Assembly (NCBI GenBank): GCA_000165425.1
Contig: CT867993.1
Coordinates: 1-64,000, forward strand
Direction of reading: 5' to 3'
DNA: 64,000 nucleotides
Source of the DNA: Paramecium tetraurelia
Taxonomy: Eukaryota
This document shows positions 39,941 through 47,151 of this stretch, piece by piece. Under the pieces are notes generated by a model. That model ran no database searches and was not told where the DNA came from. It saw nothing but the letters and a program-made list of their open reading frames with translations. The position numbers were made by a program, and so were the translations under genes. Each line of letters begins with the position of its first letter. Position 1 is the stretch's first letter.

Positions 39941-40068
39941 AAATAATTTATTATATAAATATATATATAAATTATTTATAGATGTGTGCTTGTATCAAAA
40001 TATTATTATGAGCACACTTCCAAAGAATGTATTTATAATTTGTATTCGTTTTTAATAATAATAATAAA

Positions 40069-41295
40069 ATGAAAATACTATTATTAGTTCTAATTGGCTT
40101 GGTAGTATTCACATAGGATAATAGGCATTATGCAAATTAGGCACAGATCCAAAGATAGTCTTAGCCGAAATCGATGACCATCATATGGGCAAAACATTTT
40201 TGAATGCTATTCAAATCAGTCTTGCAACTGGATCACCTGTCCATGAAATTCAAAGCTACATCAACAATATCAGGTAATTACAAAGCATAACATCAGATTC
40301 ATGTTGGAATAAGAACAAAAGGATTCAGATCTCTTTATTCAAAATACGTAAGCCTCTTGCAATAGACTGTTGCATGACTTTTCCACAAACTTGGCTTATC
40401 ATCAAAGCTAATTGAAGGCACACTAAAAAATAGTTGATGTTAGATATATTATAATAATCTTAGGAAAACACAAACAATTTATAAAGATCACTCAATAAAA
40501 TTGCTGAAGTCTCTGTGGAAATTGAAGAAAATTCAAAGAAAACTAATGCAGGATAGAGTGAAAGAGATTTATAGTATGCAGAATTCTAATCCAAAATAAA
40601 GGATCATACTGAAGCAATTTCAGCAATAGATGAAGCTTATGCACTCATTGAACATTTGTCTGGAGGTTCTTCATTCATTCAAGTTAAGGGAAGATTTAAC
40701 AAAGTTCTATAGAGATTACAAAGGTATTTCGATTTCAGTATGTGGTAGTCAATCTACAGGTTTGTTGTTTTAACCAATCTTAACTATGATGACTCAATTG
40801 TCTTCAAAATCAGATTCAGACACTGCTAAGAAAGTGCTTTAATTGTTGGCTAATTTGAGAGTTCAGATAGTTGAAAGCAAAGGAAATGATGAATCCATTG
40901 AGAAATAACAAAATTTGAATTGGTAATAATTCTTGTCAGACTTGACAAATGAGAAAAACACATTGTAACAATTCTATGCTGTATATATTTAGATCAGATC
41001 AGAGATAGAATTTAGAATAAGCAATATTGAATTATCAAAGCATAATTGAAGAGTCTGAAGGGAAAGTGGAATATCACGCTGCTGAAGTAGAGAGAAATCA
41101 GGTAAAAAGAAAGTTATACAATAGAATAACTTAGAAGGATAAGATTAATGGTGTAGATAACAATAAGATATTTATTAGATGGAAACTCAATCCAGAGTTT
41201 AGACCTAGGATCTCATATCAAGAATATCTGATCACATCTAAGATAAGATCGTTACACTCAAGGAGTATTTAAGAGAGAGACTTCAATTAAATTGA
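40069..41295 (+). CDS. Trichocyst matrix protein precursor (TMP/Grl family)
   Basis: Signal peptide; LAEIDDHHMGKTFLNAIQISLATGSPV; helical acidic body; GGSSFIQVK processing-type motif; multiple short introns. Confidence 0.85.
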
Positions 41296-41369
41296 TATTT
41301 CTTTAAGTATTGATATTAATAAAAAACAATAAAATATATATGGAGAAAAAAAAGTTTTACTCTAATTCA

Positions 41370-41850
41370 CAAATTGAATTGTAACTTCTGGTTCTAGACT
41401 AATTTTATCATGCTGCTCTCTAGTTTGAATTATTATGCTGAATTTTCCTAATTTAAAAATACATGGCTATTTAAATATTGAAATAAAATACTTTATTAGA
41501 AGGAGTATTTATCCACTTTCTTCCATTAAAGTATATAGAAATCGCGTTGGTAAGATTGGGACTTTAAATTTATGAAGGCATAGCCAGGATTAGTGGATCC
41601 ATCAAAAGACAAGTTAAAGTATTCAAAAATGTTTTGGATCGATTTTCATCATAATCATTTCATTGATGTAGCCTAAATGTTTATCTTTTATGGATGTCCA
41701 GAAATCAAATCAGAACTACTTCTTTTAATGTAAACAATGATGAAGAGATAGTATTTTTTGCATATTCCTCATAGATTTTTATCTATTTTTCACATATTTT
41801 ACAAAAATAATTCTTTTTTTTTCAACAAATATTAAAAAATTACATTTCAT
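41370..41850 (-). pseudogene. Degenerate Mei2-like RRM (RRM_2) gene
   Basis: EYFNLSFDGSTNPGYAFINL..RDFY.YFNGRKW..PSNK, 25-nt GTA..TAG intron, then PC; frameshifts and TGA stops. Confidence 0.65.
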
Positions 41851-42234
41851 CTTAACTTTTTTCAAATCAAGATTATTTACAATGATTTAATATTTAAAGA
41901 GTAAAGGATAATACAAATGAATAATAAATTAGATATTTACTATTATTGGCTGCCGTAAGTGCAGGAAATCAACGGCGTGGATTATGAATCCTCTTCATAT
42001 TATCGGCGACAATTATGAAGATATAAACGGTGAATTTTGGAATGAATCTGTGAGTTGAATTCAATGATCAGGAGATGCCAGAACACAAGAGGGGATGAAT
42101 CAGATAAGCGATACCTCTAAAGAAGCAAACAACTGTTAGAAATTACGAAGGAGATTTTATATCCAACAGCGATGACATGCTTGCCCTTCTTACATACCAA
42201 GATGACCATATAGAAAATCTAGTAAAAAGCCACC

Positions 42235-42510
42235 TATGGAAAAATTAAAAAAAATTTTGTTAAATATGCTGTAGGACAATTTGGCAGTGGATGGGTATGG
42301 TTTATAAAAAATAGGACCGATGTATCATCTCTTCGGTCAAAAAAGGATGCAGAACTACTACTTTTATACCAGGGAACTGTATTCGTATTTTGTGATGTAT
42401 GGGAACATTCTTATTAATTAGACTATCAAAATCGTCGGGCTAATCATGTTAGGATGTCATCTCACATCTTTAGAATGGGGATTTTGCTGAAGATAATTAT
42501 TTAAAATTTC
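42235..42510 (+). pseudogene. sodB: Fe superoxide dismutase, C-terminal half
   Basis: FVKYAVGQFGSGWVWF..CDVWEHSY(TAA)LDYQNRRANHV..W/DFAEDNY; N-terminal metal-ligand half absent. Confidence 0.85.
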
Positions 42511-43125
42511 CTTTTAAAAAATACATCTGTCATCATCCGACTATCTAAAATACTGTGTCCTGGAAGAAAGATAAAGGATCTTTCACTTGGAGAGCTCTTT
42601 TGATACAGATTCTATCAAATCCCCTAACTTTGGCGCTAAGCTGAGTAGTATAATAAAAAAAATAGGGCGAAGATGAATAAAGTCATCCAACATTGTATAG
42701 TTAAAAAGGCTATAAAATAGCTATTAATTATGCCTGACCATTTTTTCGCAAAACTTATTAAAAGAAAAATCTTTGGACCATCAAAATAAGAACTTATAAT
42801 ATATACACCGTAATATCACTAAGAACAGCAATGATTATTACAAAAATATTAACCCTTTACTTGATATTGCCGAAAAATTACCAAAAAAAATTAAAACTAT
42901 AAAAATCCCCAATATACCACAAATACATCCAAGAGGAAGTTTAAATGATATACATATTACAAATTTTTACTAAAGCAATCCCCTTTCCACATACTAGTAG
43001 ATGATCTAAAGTCAATTTGCCCCACATCCAATGCAAATTATCCAAAATACCAACAACAATATACAAGAAGTATATATATACGTTGATAAAATAACGTCAT
43101 ATTGATTATTTCAATATAACCATTT
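42500..43125 (-). pseudogene. cdsA: Phosphatidate cytidylyltransferase
   Basis: Hydrophobic frames; SDITVY..GPKIFLLISFAKKWSG (cf. GGPKLAPxISPxKTWSG); LGDLIESVSK/RALQVKD../PGHSILD (cf. GDLxESxxKRxxxVKDS..PGHGGxLD); frameshifted. Confidence 0.8.
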
Positions 43126-43149
43126 TCAAATATTAAAGATGTTCTTCGC

Positions 43150-43777
43150 GCACTTCATCAAACTGACTTGAACATTGTTTAAATCTTAAATTGCAAATAC
43201 CAAATCTTCTACATTAAAATCTGGCCAATATTTATCAGAAAGATAAAGTTCCATATAGCTAGATTGCCAAGGTGATGTATATAAAAATTTTGTTATAAAA
43301 TTTTCAAAAAGCTCATCAATTGTATACACTCCTTCGTTTATTTTTCGACAAGTTTTTTGCATAACTTGCAAATATCATTTCTTCCGCAATAACTAAATGC
43401 AATTTTTAATCGAAGATATCTATTGTTTGCCGTTAAATCTTCTACTTCTTGAATCAACTTTTACATAAAGGGAGATAAAACCTGCCTTTGATCAATAACA
43501 CATATACAAACACCATTTTTTGCAACAGATCTCTTTTATTTTTAGATAATATTCCATGAAACGTAAAATAGCCTTCAATTCGCCAACAGGCCTTTTCCAT
43601 TTTTCTGATAAAAGCAAAAAACCTGATAAATAATTTATACCTAATTGATGGCACCCTTCAACAATACTTCGCAAAAATAATAGATCCTCTTCTATACGCA
43701 TTTATTTTCATTTCGTTGCCCATCTGCCATTTCTATCCATAATAATAGTCACATGAAAAAAAGAGTCTATTTTTCAT
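43150..43777 (-). pseudogene. uppS: Undecaprenyl diphosphate synthase (cis-prenyltransferase)
   Basis: HVTIIMDRNGRWA, LGINYLS..SEKWKRP, LKIAFSYCGRNDI, WQSSYMELYLSDKYWPDF; internal TGA, frameshifts, DLLIRTSGExRxSNF motif deleted. Confidence 0.9.
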
Positions 43778-43800
43778 TATGCAATCATTCTTTTTTTAAA

Positions 43801-44160
43801 TTAAAAACCATTTTTTTGTTCTACCCATAATGTTTTATACATCCCACCAATAGATAAATCGTTGAATGAGAAACTATCTTCAATAATTTTTCCATGACCT
43901 TACACAATAAAGTTGATAATTTATGCGTTATAATAATAGCTGTTTTATTTTTGATAAACTCCCATAACCATTTTGAATAATTTGCTCTGTCAGTGATTCC
44001 ATGTTTAATGTTGCTTCAAAATAAGAATAGGTGCATCTTTAAATTGTACCTGCTAAAATAAAACTCTGTCTTTGACAAACTGATAATTTTTCGCCTTTTT
44101 CTCCAACAAAAGTCTTATACTCTTTAGGGGATCCATATCGAATTTTGTCTTCTAAGTTTG
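43801..44160 (-). pseudogene. Bacterial ABC exporter (MsbA/MdlB-like), C-terminal half of the NBD
   Basis: KIRYG|PKEYKTFVGEKGEKLSVCQRQ../KDAPILIL../KNKTAIIITHKLSTL../GKIIED..GMYKTLWVEQKNGF then TAA; signature and Walker B mutated. Confidence 0.85.
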
Positions 44161-44940
44161 TGGGGTTTTTCTCATCATTAAGGTGGTTCTGTTATTGCAA
44201 TCAATCTAAAATTTAAGTCTGGAATCATACATTTGTTGTGTTGAAGTCAAATGATTATTCGCTTCTTCGGGTTTGTCAAAATCATCCTTGAATAAATTGA
44301 GGTAATTCAGAGTGAATTGAACTAAAAGTTTGATTGCTACTTATAAAGATCTATGATTCTTTGAATAATTAAAAGGAATGAGTACAATAAGCTTCGAGTG
44401 TAGAGTTTAGAAATTCATCAGATATAGACGAATGGTTTAAAATATTTAATCAACGTAATTAAAATGCTACTCTTTTTGTAATAAAAACAATCTCATTTTA
44501 ATTAGCAGAGATTGATTTAGTATCTAATTTACAAAAAATAGGAAAAAATAGATATTATTTGTCCATATATTAGTGCTAAAATTCCTATCTATTCTATTTT
44601 AGAAAATCTAGTAATTACTCCAAGATTTGTTTTTATGGACATTAACAGATTGTTACAACTATTGATAATCGCAATATCGAAAAAAAAATTTGATTTCATA
44701 CTATAAGCCAATTTTGAAAGACTTTCAGAAAAATCTTTCCAACGGTTTTCTTCTTCTGAATTCTTTATTGGTATTGCCGTGTCTCTTAAAAAGATATTTT
44801 AATCCTAGTTTTATAACAAAAAAGGAATTATTTTTGCAATGAAAAAATATAGATAATAATGTATAAGGAATATTTTAAAAAAATACTACCTCTTCATTAT
44901 TGTTTACAATACAAAAAGGTGTTAAGGGGTGTAAAAAAAA

Positions 44941-45654
44941 TCAAAGGGTGATGTGTTGAATTATGTTACGTGCTTTTTGCCAGCGTTGATGAATGCCATT
45001 TTGTTTAAAAGGGTCTTGTTCTTGGATTGGGAGCAAAGGGACCATTCCAGTTAAGCACCATGTATAACGCTCTGTCTCTTTTGCATAGTATTTGGCGTTG
45101 ATAGGAGTAATTTTGGTGGCGATAGATTCTAATTGTTGTAATGCATGGTTAATAACAGCACGAGTATGGCGAACTTCAAGTGGATCTTGATTTGTAATAG
45201 GTTGAAAAAAAGAAGGACAATGTTCTTTTGCAACCATTTCTATGTCTTTTGTGATATTTTCGATATACCAATCAACTTCTGCTTCTAGAATCTAATGTTT
45301 TATTTTAGGCAGCTCAATATCATAATTTATATAATTAGGATTGCTCTAATAACGATCAACATATCTGGCATAAGTTGCTGTATTAACATATGCATGAACA
45401 TCAAAGAGATTATGCATATATTCTAAATTAATAAGAAAATCCTGTTTTAGAAACTCATTTATTTCTTTTTTTTCTATCCATTATTCTAAAATATCTTGCC
45501 GAGCTTCTAAAAGCATTTAATAAGAGAACAAACCATTTTCTAAAGCACTTATTAAAGAAAGCATTATTTCTGTAGAATTTTCAGAACCATGATTATTTAC
45601 TTCTATCTCTTCTGCCTCAGTTGAAAATGTTGCGTTAACAAATTGTCTATCCAT
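44941..45654 (-). CDS. Hypothetical 237-aa protein of probable bacterial origin, intact under the ciliate code
   Basis: ATG 45654 to TGA 44941 with no frameshift, TGA or intron; 4 TAA/TAG vs 13 CAA/CAG Gln codons; several CGN Arg codons. Confidence 0.6.
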
Positions 45655-45779
45655 CGCTAAACCTTTAAAAATAAAATATAACTATTTAAAATAATGTTCA
45701 TTTATATAGTTTTTTCTTGTTATCTAATTAATTAACAACTTATTAAACTTTTAAATTATGTTAAAAACAAATTTATACA

Positions 45780-47151
45780 TCATTAAATAAATTGTTCGAC
45801 CCTTTATTATTTCTCTGGTTTTGGAGCTTCGTATTACCCTGGATTGTTGAGTTCTGCATTTCGTTGTTTTCTATTCTTAGATTCCTTCATTTCTTGTCTC
45901 TACTTCTTTTTATTCATAAGATATTTAGGTAGATGTCTATGTTTTGCAATTCTCTTGATTTCTGGATTATACTTAAACTTCTCTTTAAGTGCCTATCTAT
46001 AATTCGTTGCATTGGCTTCTCTTTGATTAATAGTTCCTACCTTCTGACTGGCATTGACCTTCCAAATTCTGATGTTCATATCATTAGATCCACTATACAC
46101 AAATTAAGCATCAGCTGAGAATGAAACTGAGTTCACTTATTGCATTCTCTATCCGTGATACACTTCCCTTGAATATCCTTTATTGAATGGGAAAATCCTA
46201 ATAGTTCTGTCAAATGATCCAGAAACGAATTCCCTCCCACTTGAACTAAATGCAACTGACATGACAGCCGAAATGTGATCTTTATGGATCATAGTAGGCT
46301 ATTCAATCTTCCTGATATCATAAGTATAACAATTTGAATCATCATTTCCAATCACAATATTTAATGGTTCAATGGGATTCCATGCCAAACATTAAGACTT
46401 ATTCAACATAGCCACTTTATGAATTGCAGATTCAGCTCTTACATCATACAATATTACACATCTATCCATTGAAGTTCCACAAATTAAATTACTATCAGCT
46501 GGAGAATATTTCACACAACTCACTGAATCCACTCCCCATTAGAATTTCATTATTGGCTTTGGTCTTTCATAATCCCAAACCTAAACTACCTATCCTGCAG
46601 TAGCAAATTATGATAACTAGTAATTGTGATCAACATTCCCCAAAGTTCCTTTACTTAAATATCTCATCAATGGTTCTTAAAATGTATTATTTGATTATTC
46701 CAATAATTAAGGAAAATCATATAAATTGATGGTCTTGTCTTCACCAGAAGAAACTACACGCATTCCATCTCTACTAAATGAAACTCCCTTCACCATCTAT
46801 TAATGTGCATCTATTAAATATAGTGATTATTTCCTTACTTAATTAAATTAATGTTCTTCTACTGGGAATATCCCAAATTCGTATTTCTCCATCATAGCTT
46901 CCACTTACTAATTTTGACAAGTTAAATCTGCATGCTTCAATGCAACTTACTCCATCTGAGTGTCCATTCAATGCTCCCAAGAATGGTTGAGCGTATATTT
47001 TCTCTACTTTTGTAGCCACTAAAGCACGTTGATATTCTCTAGCATGTGCTAAAGGATGTACTTTTGGATTAGGATTCCTATATACTTTAGTAATATCAGC
47101 ATTTGTCGATCTTTCTTATCCAGACCTACAGATTGTGTTGAATTTTACCAT
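45780..47151 (-). CDS. DCAF13: DCAF13/Sof1 WD40 protein (SSU processome)
   Basis: VHPLAHAREYQRALVATKVEKIYAQPFLGALNGHSDG, WNPIEP, DHISAVMSVAFSSSGREFVSGSFD, YHGQRMQ, GSNDMNIRIWK. Confidence 0.96.

Follow-up and report, generated by a model that had tools for sequence, protein, structure and literature searches.

How does a run of broken bacterial genes come to lie between two transcribed genes of a ciliate, and is it truly part of the ciliate's chromosome? The question is raised by 64,000 nucleotides of a Paramecium tetraurelia macronuclear scaffold (contig CT867993.1, positions 1 to 64,000 of the forward strand; the window hereafter, with a GC content of 22–36% in 1-kb bins), in which an original prediction, made from the letters alone, had marked 41880..45710 as a fossil of bacterial chromosome. 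We conclude, with a probability of about 0.82, that the window holds a dead multi-gene bacterial DNA fossil, most likely alphaproteobacterial, captured between convergent host genes and carried in the P. tetraurelia somatic genome. The recognisable bacterial remnants, those of a superoxide dismutase (SOD), the CDP-diglyceride synthase CdsA, the undecaprenyl-diphosphate synthase UppS and an ATP-binding cassette (ABC) exporter, occupy 42232–44191 (1.96 kb), within a 3.67-kb gap with almost no transcript.

Four broken genes of bacterial type

The UppS remnant (43168..43755, minus strand) is nearly full length and is recovered both by the Pfam Prenyltransf profile and by frameshift-aware alignment. 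Read through at 43183–43761, it covers positions 1–209 of the 219 in the profile (E 3e-17, 63 bits against a cut-off of 27), and it consists of three pieces in different frames. Alignment to protein P0012 matches residues 22–242 of 258 at 36% identity over 197 aa, and requires two frameshifts, six in-frame stops (one TGA and five TAA) and a 3-residue deletion. In addition, a 21-aa deletion takes out the RTGGE..SNFLLWQ core, and the catalytic DGNGRW motif reads DRNGRW. This deletion (63 bp) was considered as the scar of an internal eliminated sequence (IES) and rejected, there being no TA at the junction. A deposited P. tetraurelia model, P0005 (173 aa; 43183–43701, minus strand), lies on this pseudogene, skipping frames and reading TAA and TAG as glutamine; it has zero RNA support in run X22, a stranded polyA run from one condition.

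Directly downstream of UppS, in the bacterial arrangement, lies the C-terminal half of CdsA (42513..42926, minus strand). Frameshift-aware scores against five references range from 73 to 110 (85–110 with the four references other than a metagenome-assembled genome (MAG) of the Holosporaceae), as compared with 28–45 in 20 shuffles, and the alignments show 37–43% identity over 93–125 aa with 3–6 frameshifts. A tblastn search with 59 bacterial CdsA proteins places 23 of its 97 matches in this 0.7-kb stretch, all colinear and on the minus strand, yet weak (best E 0.004). The signature region of the enzyme reads GDLIES..KR..VKD..PGHS-ILD, in which the PGHGG of the intact motif has become PGHS.

Facing these two genes, on the plus strand, is the C-terminal domain of an Fe/Mn SOD (42232..42506), found by frameshift-aware alignment and by the Pfam profile Sod_Fe_C (E 1.1e-15, 58 bits against a cut-off of 20.9, for the plus-strand frame at 42232–42480 with X placed at stops). 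Against the metagenomic SOD P0160 the domain aligns at 46% identity over 91 aa, with one frameshift and two stops (TAA and TAG). Nothing is left to recognise of the N-terminal domain: the frameshift-aware score is 32 against a null of 20–35 in 30 shuffles, Pfam gives no Sod_Fe_N match, and a search of the PDB with three frames returned no relevant chain (a single chance match, E 0.71, was to an arginyl-tRNA synthetase). On its sequence, lacking an N-domain signal and with its frame broken, the SOD piece is a remnant and not a member gene. Here too a deposited P. tetraurelia model, P0159 (179 aa; 42066–42605, plus strand), covers the pseudogene, with TAA and TAG read as glutamine. Both P0159 and P0005 are artefactual models stitched from dead frames, and their re-annotation is due.

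The fourth remnant (43804..44191, minus strand), seen in frameshift-aware alignment and among PDB matches, comprises the last ~117–135 residues of the ATPase domain of an ABC-B-type half-transporter, ending at the natural C-terminus. Scores against eight bacterial half-transporters are 110–193, with 29–42 in 8 shuffles, and the top score of 193 corresponds to 53% identity over 110 aa with the 588-aa exporter of an alphaproteobacterial MAG. For the ABC and CdsA pieces alike, the scores are 2–5 times the shuffled maxima. An 87-residue read-through of the ABC piece retrieves, by phmmer, 100 PDB chains of ABC-B type at E<=1 (best 2e-5). The ABC signature LSGGQ has become LSVCQRQ, and the Walker B/D-loop region is degenerate (ILIL-EAT). 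Of Walker A, the Q-loop and the transmembrane domain there is no detectable trace at 44129–44945, where the upstream alignment scores 31–34 against a null of 28–44.

From the ABC end at 43804 it is 49 bp to the UppS start at 43755; UppS, running to 43168, is followed by CdsA, whose end at 42513 abuts that of SOD at 42506. Gene ends within the block are thus 0–60 bp apart, which is bacterial spacing. The four remnants named in the original prediction (Fe-SOD, CdsA, UppS and ABC) are all seen in the alignments, each with frameshifts, stops and deletions as well as altered motifs; the motifs it quoted occur in the six-frame translation, where IIMDRNGRWA, KLSVCQRQ, LPGHSILD, GQFGSGW and DVWEHSY can be read; and the native bacterial uppS–cdsA pair does lie inside host DNA as dead remnants.

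Two of the four assignments are less firmly anchored, and this weighs against our conclusion. CdsA gives no Pfam match (CTP_transf_1) at E<=1 when the three minus-strand frames are searched singly, and the ABC piece gives none in any single frame; the support for both comes from a custom frameshift-aware aligner with small shuffle controls (8–20 shuffles).

Donor and unity of the fragment

The original prediction saw motifs that fit Alphaproteobacteria and inferred a symbiont as the source, naming the Holosporales and Rickettsiales that live in Paramecium. An alphaproteobacterial donor is likely, as judged from sequence comparison. Among the 119 non-self SOD matches listed, none carries a eukaryote name; seven are named by organism, none of them a ciliate, with three as 'Alphaproteobacteria bacterium' and one each as Kiloniellaceae, 'bacterium', Patescibacteria and Pseudomonadota, so that Alphaproteobacteria account for four of the seven. 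The best-scoring CdsA references are all alphaproteobacterial. The K-T-W-S-G motif of CdsA is present in 24 of 35 alpha-type rows and in 0 of 47 others, and the fossil has K-K-W-S-G at this place. In a concatenated UppS and CdsA tree (83 rows, 285 columns, a quick IQ-TREE run with eukaryotic homologues left out), the fossil falls inside a set with SH-aLRT support of 95 that comprises all alpha-type rows, on a very long branch (2.27), and its nearest neighbours are the alphaproteobacterial MAG, with a genome of ~1.2 Mb, and the order of that MAG.

With a limit of E<=1e-3, a full HMMER scan of 1.84 billion representatives with UppS retrieves 362 proteins; apart from UppS itself, the best match reaches 40% identity, and no close UppS donor was found among these representatives. 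The 150 UppS matches listed show 27–49% identity, and the aligned full-length ones carry bacterial UppS motifs; the 80 best UppS genome loci are spread over many phyla at 21–35% identity. In favour of an alphaproteobacterial donor, the ABC piece has its best match, at 53% identity, in the alphaproteobacterial MAG that is also nearest in the tree, as compared with 49% for P. putida and 39% for Limnohabitans. Its in-frame part, compared with 50 named genomes, scores 25–30 bits in alpha and beta/gamma members alike, a poor discrimination. Against an alphaproteobacterial donor stands the approximately unbiased (AU) test, in which a position of the fossil outside the alpha rows obtains a p-AU of 0.71, the constrained tree being 7.0 log-likelihood units better. 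The alphaproteobacterial origin is favoured by the named SOD matches, the CdsA references, the WSG motif, the tree and the best ABC match, whereas the AU test does not reject a non-alpha position. A narrower attribution, to a Holosporales or Rickettsiales symbiont, found no support: 40 genomes of two small-genome alphaproteobacterial orders show no synteny with the block.

The same comparisons bear on whether the block is one piece. Neither the ABC–uppS nor the cdsA–sodB adjacency is present at any of 80 named genome loci, and SOD or ABC motifs are near uppS at none of 80 metagenome loci. Among 22 genomes of the order of the Holosporaceae MAG and 18 of the order of the alphaproteobacterial MAG, there is no SOD–uppS, cdsA–sodB or ABC–uppS adjacency and no closer ABC match; this synteny sample is small and biased, and class-wide sampling, Rickettsiales included, lies outside it. 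Since donor-like adjacencies were not found, the block may have been put together from separate fragments as a mosaic, or its insertion may have been followed by rearrangement. We regard as possible, if on the doubtful side, a version of this in which the DNA is bacterial but is such a mosaic, or a rearranged larger insert, from food or a free-living bacterium; Paramecium eats bacteria, and the MAG that gave the best matches for ABC and CdsA (locus L034) keeps the usual frr–uppS–cdsA–rseP–bamA order. The fossil agrees with that neighbourhood in that cdsA comes right after uppS on one strand, and differs in having an ABC exporter end in place of frr upstream and a convergent sodB in place of rseP downstream. 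What speaks for a single captured fragment is that each of the three junctions coincides with natural gene ends, 0–60 bp apart, as expected of a compact donor genome, and that the nearest tree rows and the best ABC, CdsA and concatenated identities all come from ~1-Mb genomes.

We note in passing that a ~1.0-Mb genome of the alphaproteobacterial MAG's order has a uppS with an in-frame TGA, reported in two pieces (G033:C1:819479-820125), which may point to a pseudogene, to an error of sequencing or to recoding of the stop.

If the genes were native instead, that is, decayed eukaryotic paralogues of SOD, CDP-diglyceride synthase, cis-prenyltransferase and an ABC-B transporter that died in place, they would have to account for four unrelated genes, with bacterial spacing, in less than 2 kb and including the bacterial uppS–cdsA pair; we consider this very unlikely. 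Paramecium does have its own cis-prenyltransferases, as excerpts of PMC12998183 indicate, and the best PDB matches of the ABC piece are eukaryotic ABCB1 chains, a point that counts against a bacterial source. These chains score higher because their two ATPase domains add up; taken alone, the ABC piece could formally still be a pseudogene of a host ABC-B gene. Among the SOD matches listed, however, the only Paramecium proteins are models made on this very locus, and among the UppS matches listed the sole further Paramecium-type row is a pseudo-open reading frame, P0008, to which we return below. The WSG motif of CdsA, for its part, occurs only in alpha-type bacterial rows.

Place of the block in the host chromosome

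The proteins encoded in the window are 100% identical to macronuclear P. tetraurelia records on a contig of 302,836 bp. The almost RNA-free gap (41276–44940) separates two host genes that converge tail to tail. The left neighbour is transcribed from the plus strand (~40137–41275) at an RNA depth of 35–51, and many RNA molecules terminate at 41262–41275. Loose ends of X22 RNA within it, at 41100 (behind) and 41128 (before), would fit a ~27-nt intron at 41101–41127, which marks the flanks as typical intron-bearing Paramecium genes. The right neighbour (44944–45654, minus strand) has 237 codons open under the ciliate code and is transcribed; its protein is 67% identical to a P. octaurelia protein, and 52% identical to a P. 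tetraurelia protein and to another P. octaurelia protein. The open ciliate-code frame, the Paramecium relatives and the transcription together identify it as a native expressed host gene and not part of the fossil. The extent first proposed for the fossil is therefore too wide. The bacterial identity stands for 42232–44191 only; the right-hand third of the proposed interval is taken up by this intact gene with its Paramecium homologues, and the left ~350 bases are without detectable SOD.

Outside the four remnants, no bacterial signal is detectable at 41276–42231 or at 44192–44940. The segment at 41841..42231, GC-richer than its surroundings, gives no Pfam match, no relevant PDB match and no frameshift-aware SOD N-domain signal; it may be the obliterated N-terminal domain of SOD or other donor DNA. 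Likewise unassigned is the untranscribed stretch that leads from the ABC remnant to the right arm of an inverted repeat described below (44192..44793), where six frames give no Pfam match. Within the block as a whole, a six-frame search found no transposase or other Pfam domain (a row for the oedema-factor helical domain, E 0.049, is a chance match), and no tRNA or Rfam RNA rises above threshold, a SCARNA7 row of 22.7 bits falling well below its gathering score of 65. The GC content is 0.29–0.375 over 41931–44128 (0.375 at 41931–42231), falls to 0.23–0.24 toward both repeat arms, and is 0.232 at 41276–41930 and 0.16 in nearby host spacer. This profile fits foreign DNA that is still short of host intergenic composition.

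The polyA RNA of X22 has a depth of 0 at 42977–44680 and of 0.4–2 at 41273–42976, next to the 35–51 of the neighbouring gene. This low signal on the sense strand (depth ~2), together with the 179 codons that the P0159 frame keeps open under the ciliate code, might suggest that this frame is a young host gene, or more generally that the block has a residual or structural role. We judge such a function highly improbable: the RNA reaches ~4% of the neighbouring gene's level and runs on without a break from the 3' end of that gene, which makes read-through likely, and the frame itself lacks the SOD N-domain, is frameshifted at its C-terminus and is in part excised in a fraction of the molecules.

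At least half of the sampled words of 41000–46000 are present in 20 of the 24 public runs listed, which come from 11 studies. Three DNA-like runs from three studies (X1, X2 and X12) were compared in depth; an RNA run, X20, with a share of 0.54, does not enter the evidence. In X2, the block lies within a single 3879-bp unitig (41131–45009) with 0 differences, which includes ~140 bases of the expressed left gene and the first ~65 bases of the right one, and whose depth of 192.8 compares with 170–250 in the flanks. The block has a depth of 31.3 in X12 (flanks 28–35) and of 15–24 in X1 (flanks 26–52), somewhat lower in the latter. Both junctions are bridged, and the copy number is host-like. An assembly chimera or contamination, with bacterial reads joined to host sequence, could not be ruled out from the original assembly alone, and three of the listed runs are flagged as a possible source of this DNA, but it is scarcely credible when independent runs of other studies hold the same sequence, with unitigs that bridge both sides without a difference at flank-like depth, in a block whose 27–32% GC and many frameshifts are unlike a living bacterium. 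The junction and depth check has thus borne out, in independent data, the argument of the original prediction that the block is not contamination.

Two further features of the assembled reads were noted. In X2 and X12, extra low-depth contigs track the window to 43301 and 43554 and then continue into unlike sequence; the X2 bin depth goes from 192.8 to 229. These contigs could stem from a related copy, from a variant or from DNA confined to the germline. Each of the three DNA-like runs also has loose ends grouped at ~40051 and ~45687, and one X2 contig (depth 15.1, with only 20 letters on its shorter side) joins 40041 to 45685, leaving out 5643 bases and with them the block and its two neighbouring genes. 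This joint may have arisen as an artefact of a repeat, or may reflect an internal deletion that is rare.

Capture, age and meaning

The block is bracketed by an inverted repeat of ~127 bp, whose left arm lies at 41714..41840 and whose right arm lies at 44794..44923, in the 3' flank of the host gene ending at 44944. The arms match by blastn (the left against 44923–44794) at 75% identity over 134 columns (E 2.3e-20, 88 bits), and the pair is unique in the window, the next best match having 38 bits. The right arm is host sequence, because an orthologous stretch is conserved in the read-through tail of a P. octaurelia model. That model, P0002 (280 aa), appears to read past the stop of the orthologous gene, and its tail matches 44820–45008 (minus strand) in another frame. 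An inverted paralogue of the right host gene in the left flank was considered as the source of the repeat and ruled out (score 29–31 against a null of 24–42). Either a ~127-bp inverted duplication of the host flank would have accompanied the capture, or the DNA would have landed in the centre of a pre-existing palindrome.

Inside the SOD remnant, a TA-bounded segment of 63 bp (42209..42273) is excised in part of the macronuclear molecules. The joint from 42208 to 42272, which skips 63 bases, has a depth of 5.3 out of ~15–24 in X1 and of 15.8 out of ~31 in X12, and was not seen in X2. An intron was ruled out as its cause, as GT..AG ends are lacking and the coverage of untranscribed DNA in these runs is even. 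The ends of Paramecium IESs follow the consensus TAYAG, and their polymorphic relatives are known as TA-indels; the ends of the 63-bp segment are TATAG and, in reverse complement, TACAG. Part of the foreign-derived DNA thus behaves as a variably excised IES-like segment, resembling IESs and TA-indels in its TA boundaries, its TAYAG-like ends and its varying presence among DNA samples, and differing from them in that it sits within foreign-derived DNA.

A possible second copy of the fossil bears on its age. Two open reading frames of 82 residues, P0008 and P0156, which lie on contigs of ~2 kb in other public assemblies, match 43499–43260 at 49–50% identity over 80 aa without a gap. The match includes stretches of the window that are out of frame for UppS, and where the window has slipped out of the true UppS frame the two sequences partly stay in it, a pattern that points to independent decay of a shared insertion. 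P0008 and P0156 have the appearance to be expected if a further Paramecium species carried an orthologous copy that decays on its own. As a scale for this divergence, the non-coding tail of the P. octaurelia model is 53% identical to the window. The insertion is probably old, and the 25% divergence of the repeat arms, similar to that between the fossil copies, suggests by a rough reckoning that it took place not long before the split from that species.

In the course of events that would best accommodate these observations, a bacterial chromosomal fragment carrying at least the 3' end of an ABC exporter gene, uppS, cdsA and a convergent sodB would have been captured in the tail-to-tail intergenic region of two convergent Paramecium genes, and would since have been inherited as ordinary macronucleus-destined DNA. 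Its genes would never have been host genes, being without promoter activity, frameshifted, deprived of catalytic residues and drifting toward host base composition. The capture may have occurred at a double-strand break or a hairpin, which would explain the ~127-bp inverted duplication of host flank; it would have involved passage through the germline, may predate a Paramecium speciation event, and may have been followed by the DNA-elimination machinery coming to treat part of the block as an IES.

A bolder version can be put forward only tentatively, and we consider it rather unlikely as a whole: an old germline capture from an alphaproteobacterial intracellular symbiont, before several P. 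aurelia species diverged, at a hairpin or break that left the 127-bp inverted duplication, surviving RNA-guided genome defence and now being carved up by new IES-like sites. If true, the block would preserve a past symbiosis as a molecular fossil that can be dated, and would be an instance in nature of IESs arising within foreign DNA.

Insertions of bacterial DNA into nuclear genomes are a kind already known, and the added interest here comes from the genome-defence biology of Paramecium. The nuwts of animals, transferred from Wolbachia to their hosts, are multi-gene stretches of bacterial DNA in a host chromosome, mostly untranscribed and gaining frameshifts and stops. The Paramecium block is like them in carrying several bacterial genes in a host chromosome with frameshifts and stops, whereas it is small and far more decayed, with 36–53% protein identity to the nearest bacteria. 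Among ciliates, functional transfers from bacteria have been described for rumen ciliates (PMC1413528), for the MsrB of Euplotes (PMC4247871) and for Pseudocohnilembus (PMC4614350). These share with our case the presence of bacterial DNA in ciliate macronuclear genomes and differ in that the transferred genes are single, expressed and host-adapted, in contrast to a dead, multi-gene block of operon-type order. A full-text literature search, with subscription-only papers outside its coverage, did not turn up any account of fossil bacterial DNA in the nuclear genomes of Paramecium.

The locus shows that a ciliate has taken up and kept bacterial DNA, as a piece of ~2–3 kb that is untranscribed and decaying. 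In Paramecium, germline DNA that the maternal somatic nucleus lacked is removed. A bacterial insert of several genes that nonetheless persists in the somatic genome is a natural test case for how foreign DNA escapes this elimination defence, and it bears on the pace of neutral DNA decay and deletion in a very compact genome. The block may, in addition, record a former symbiont, and the flanking repeat and the copy in other assemblies offer routes to its dating.

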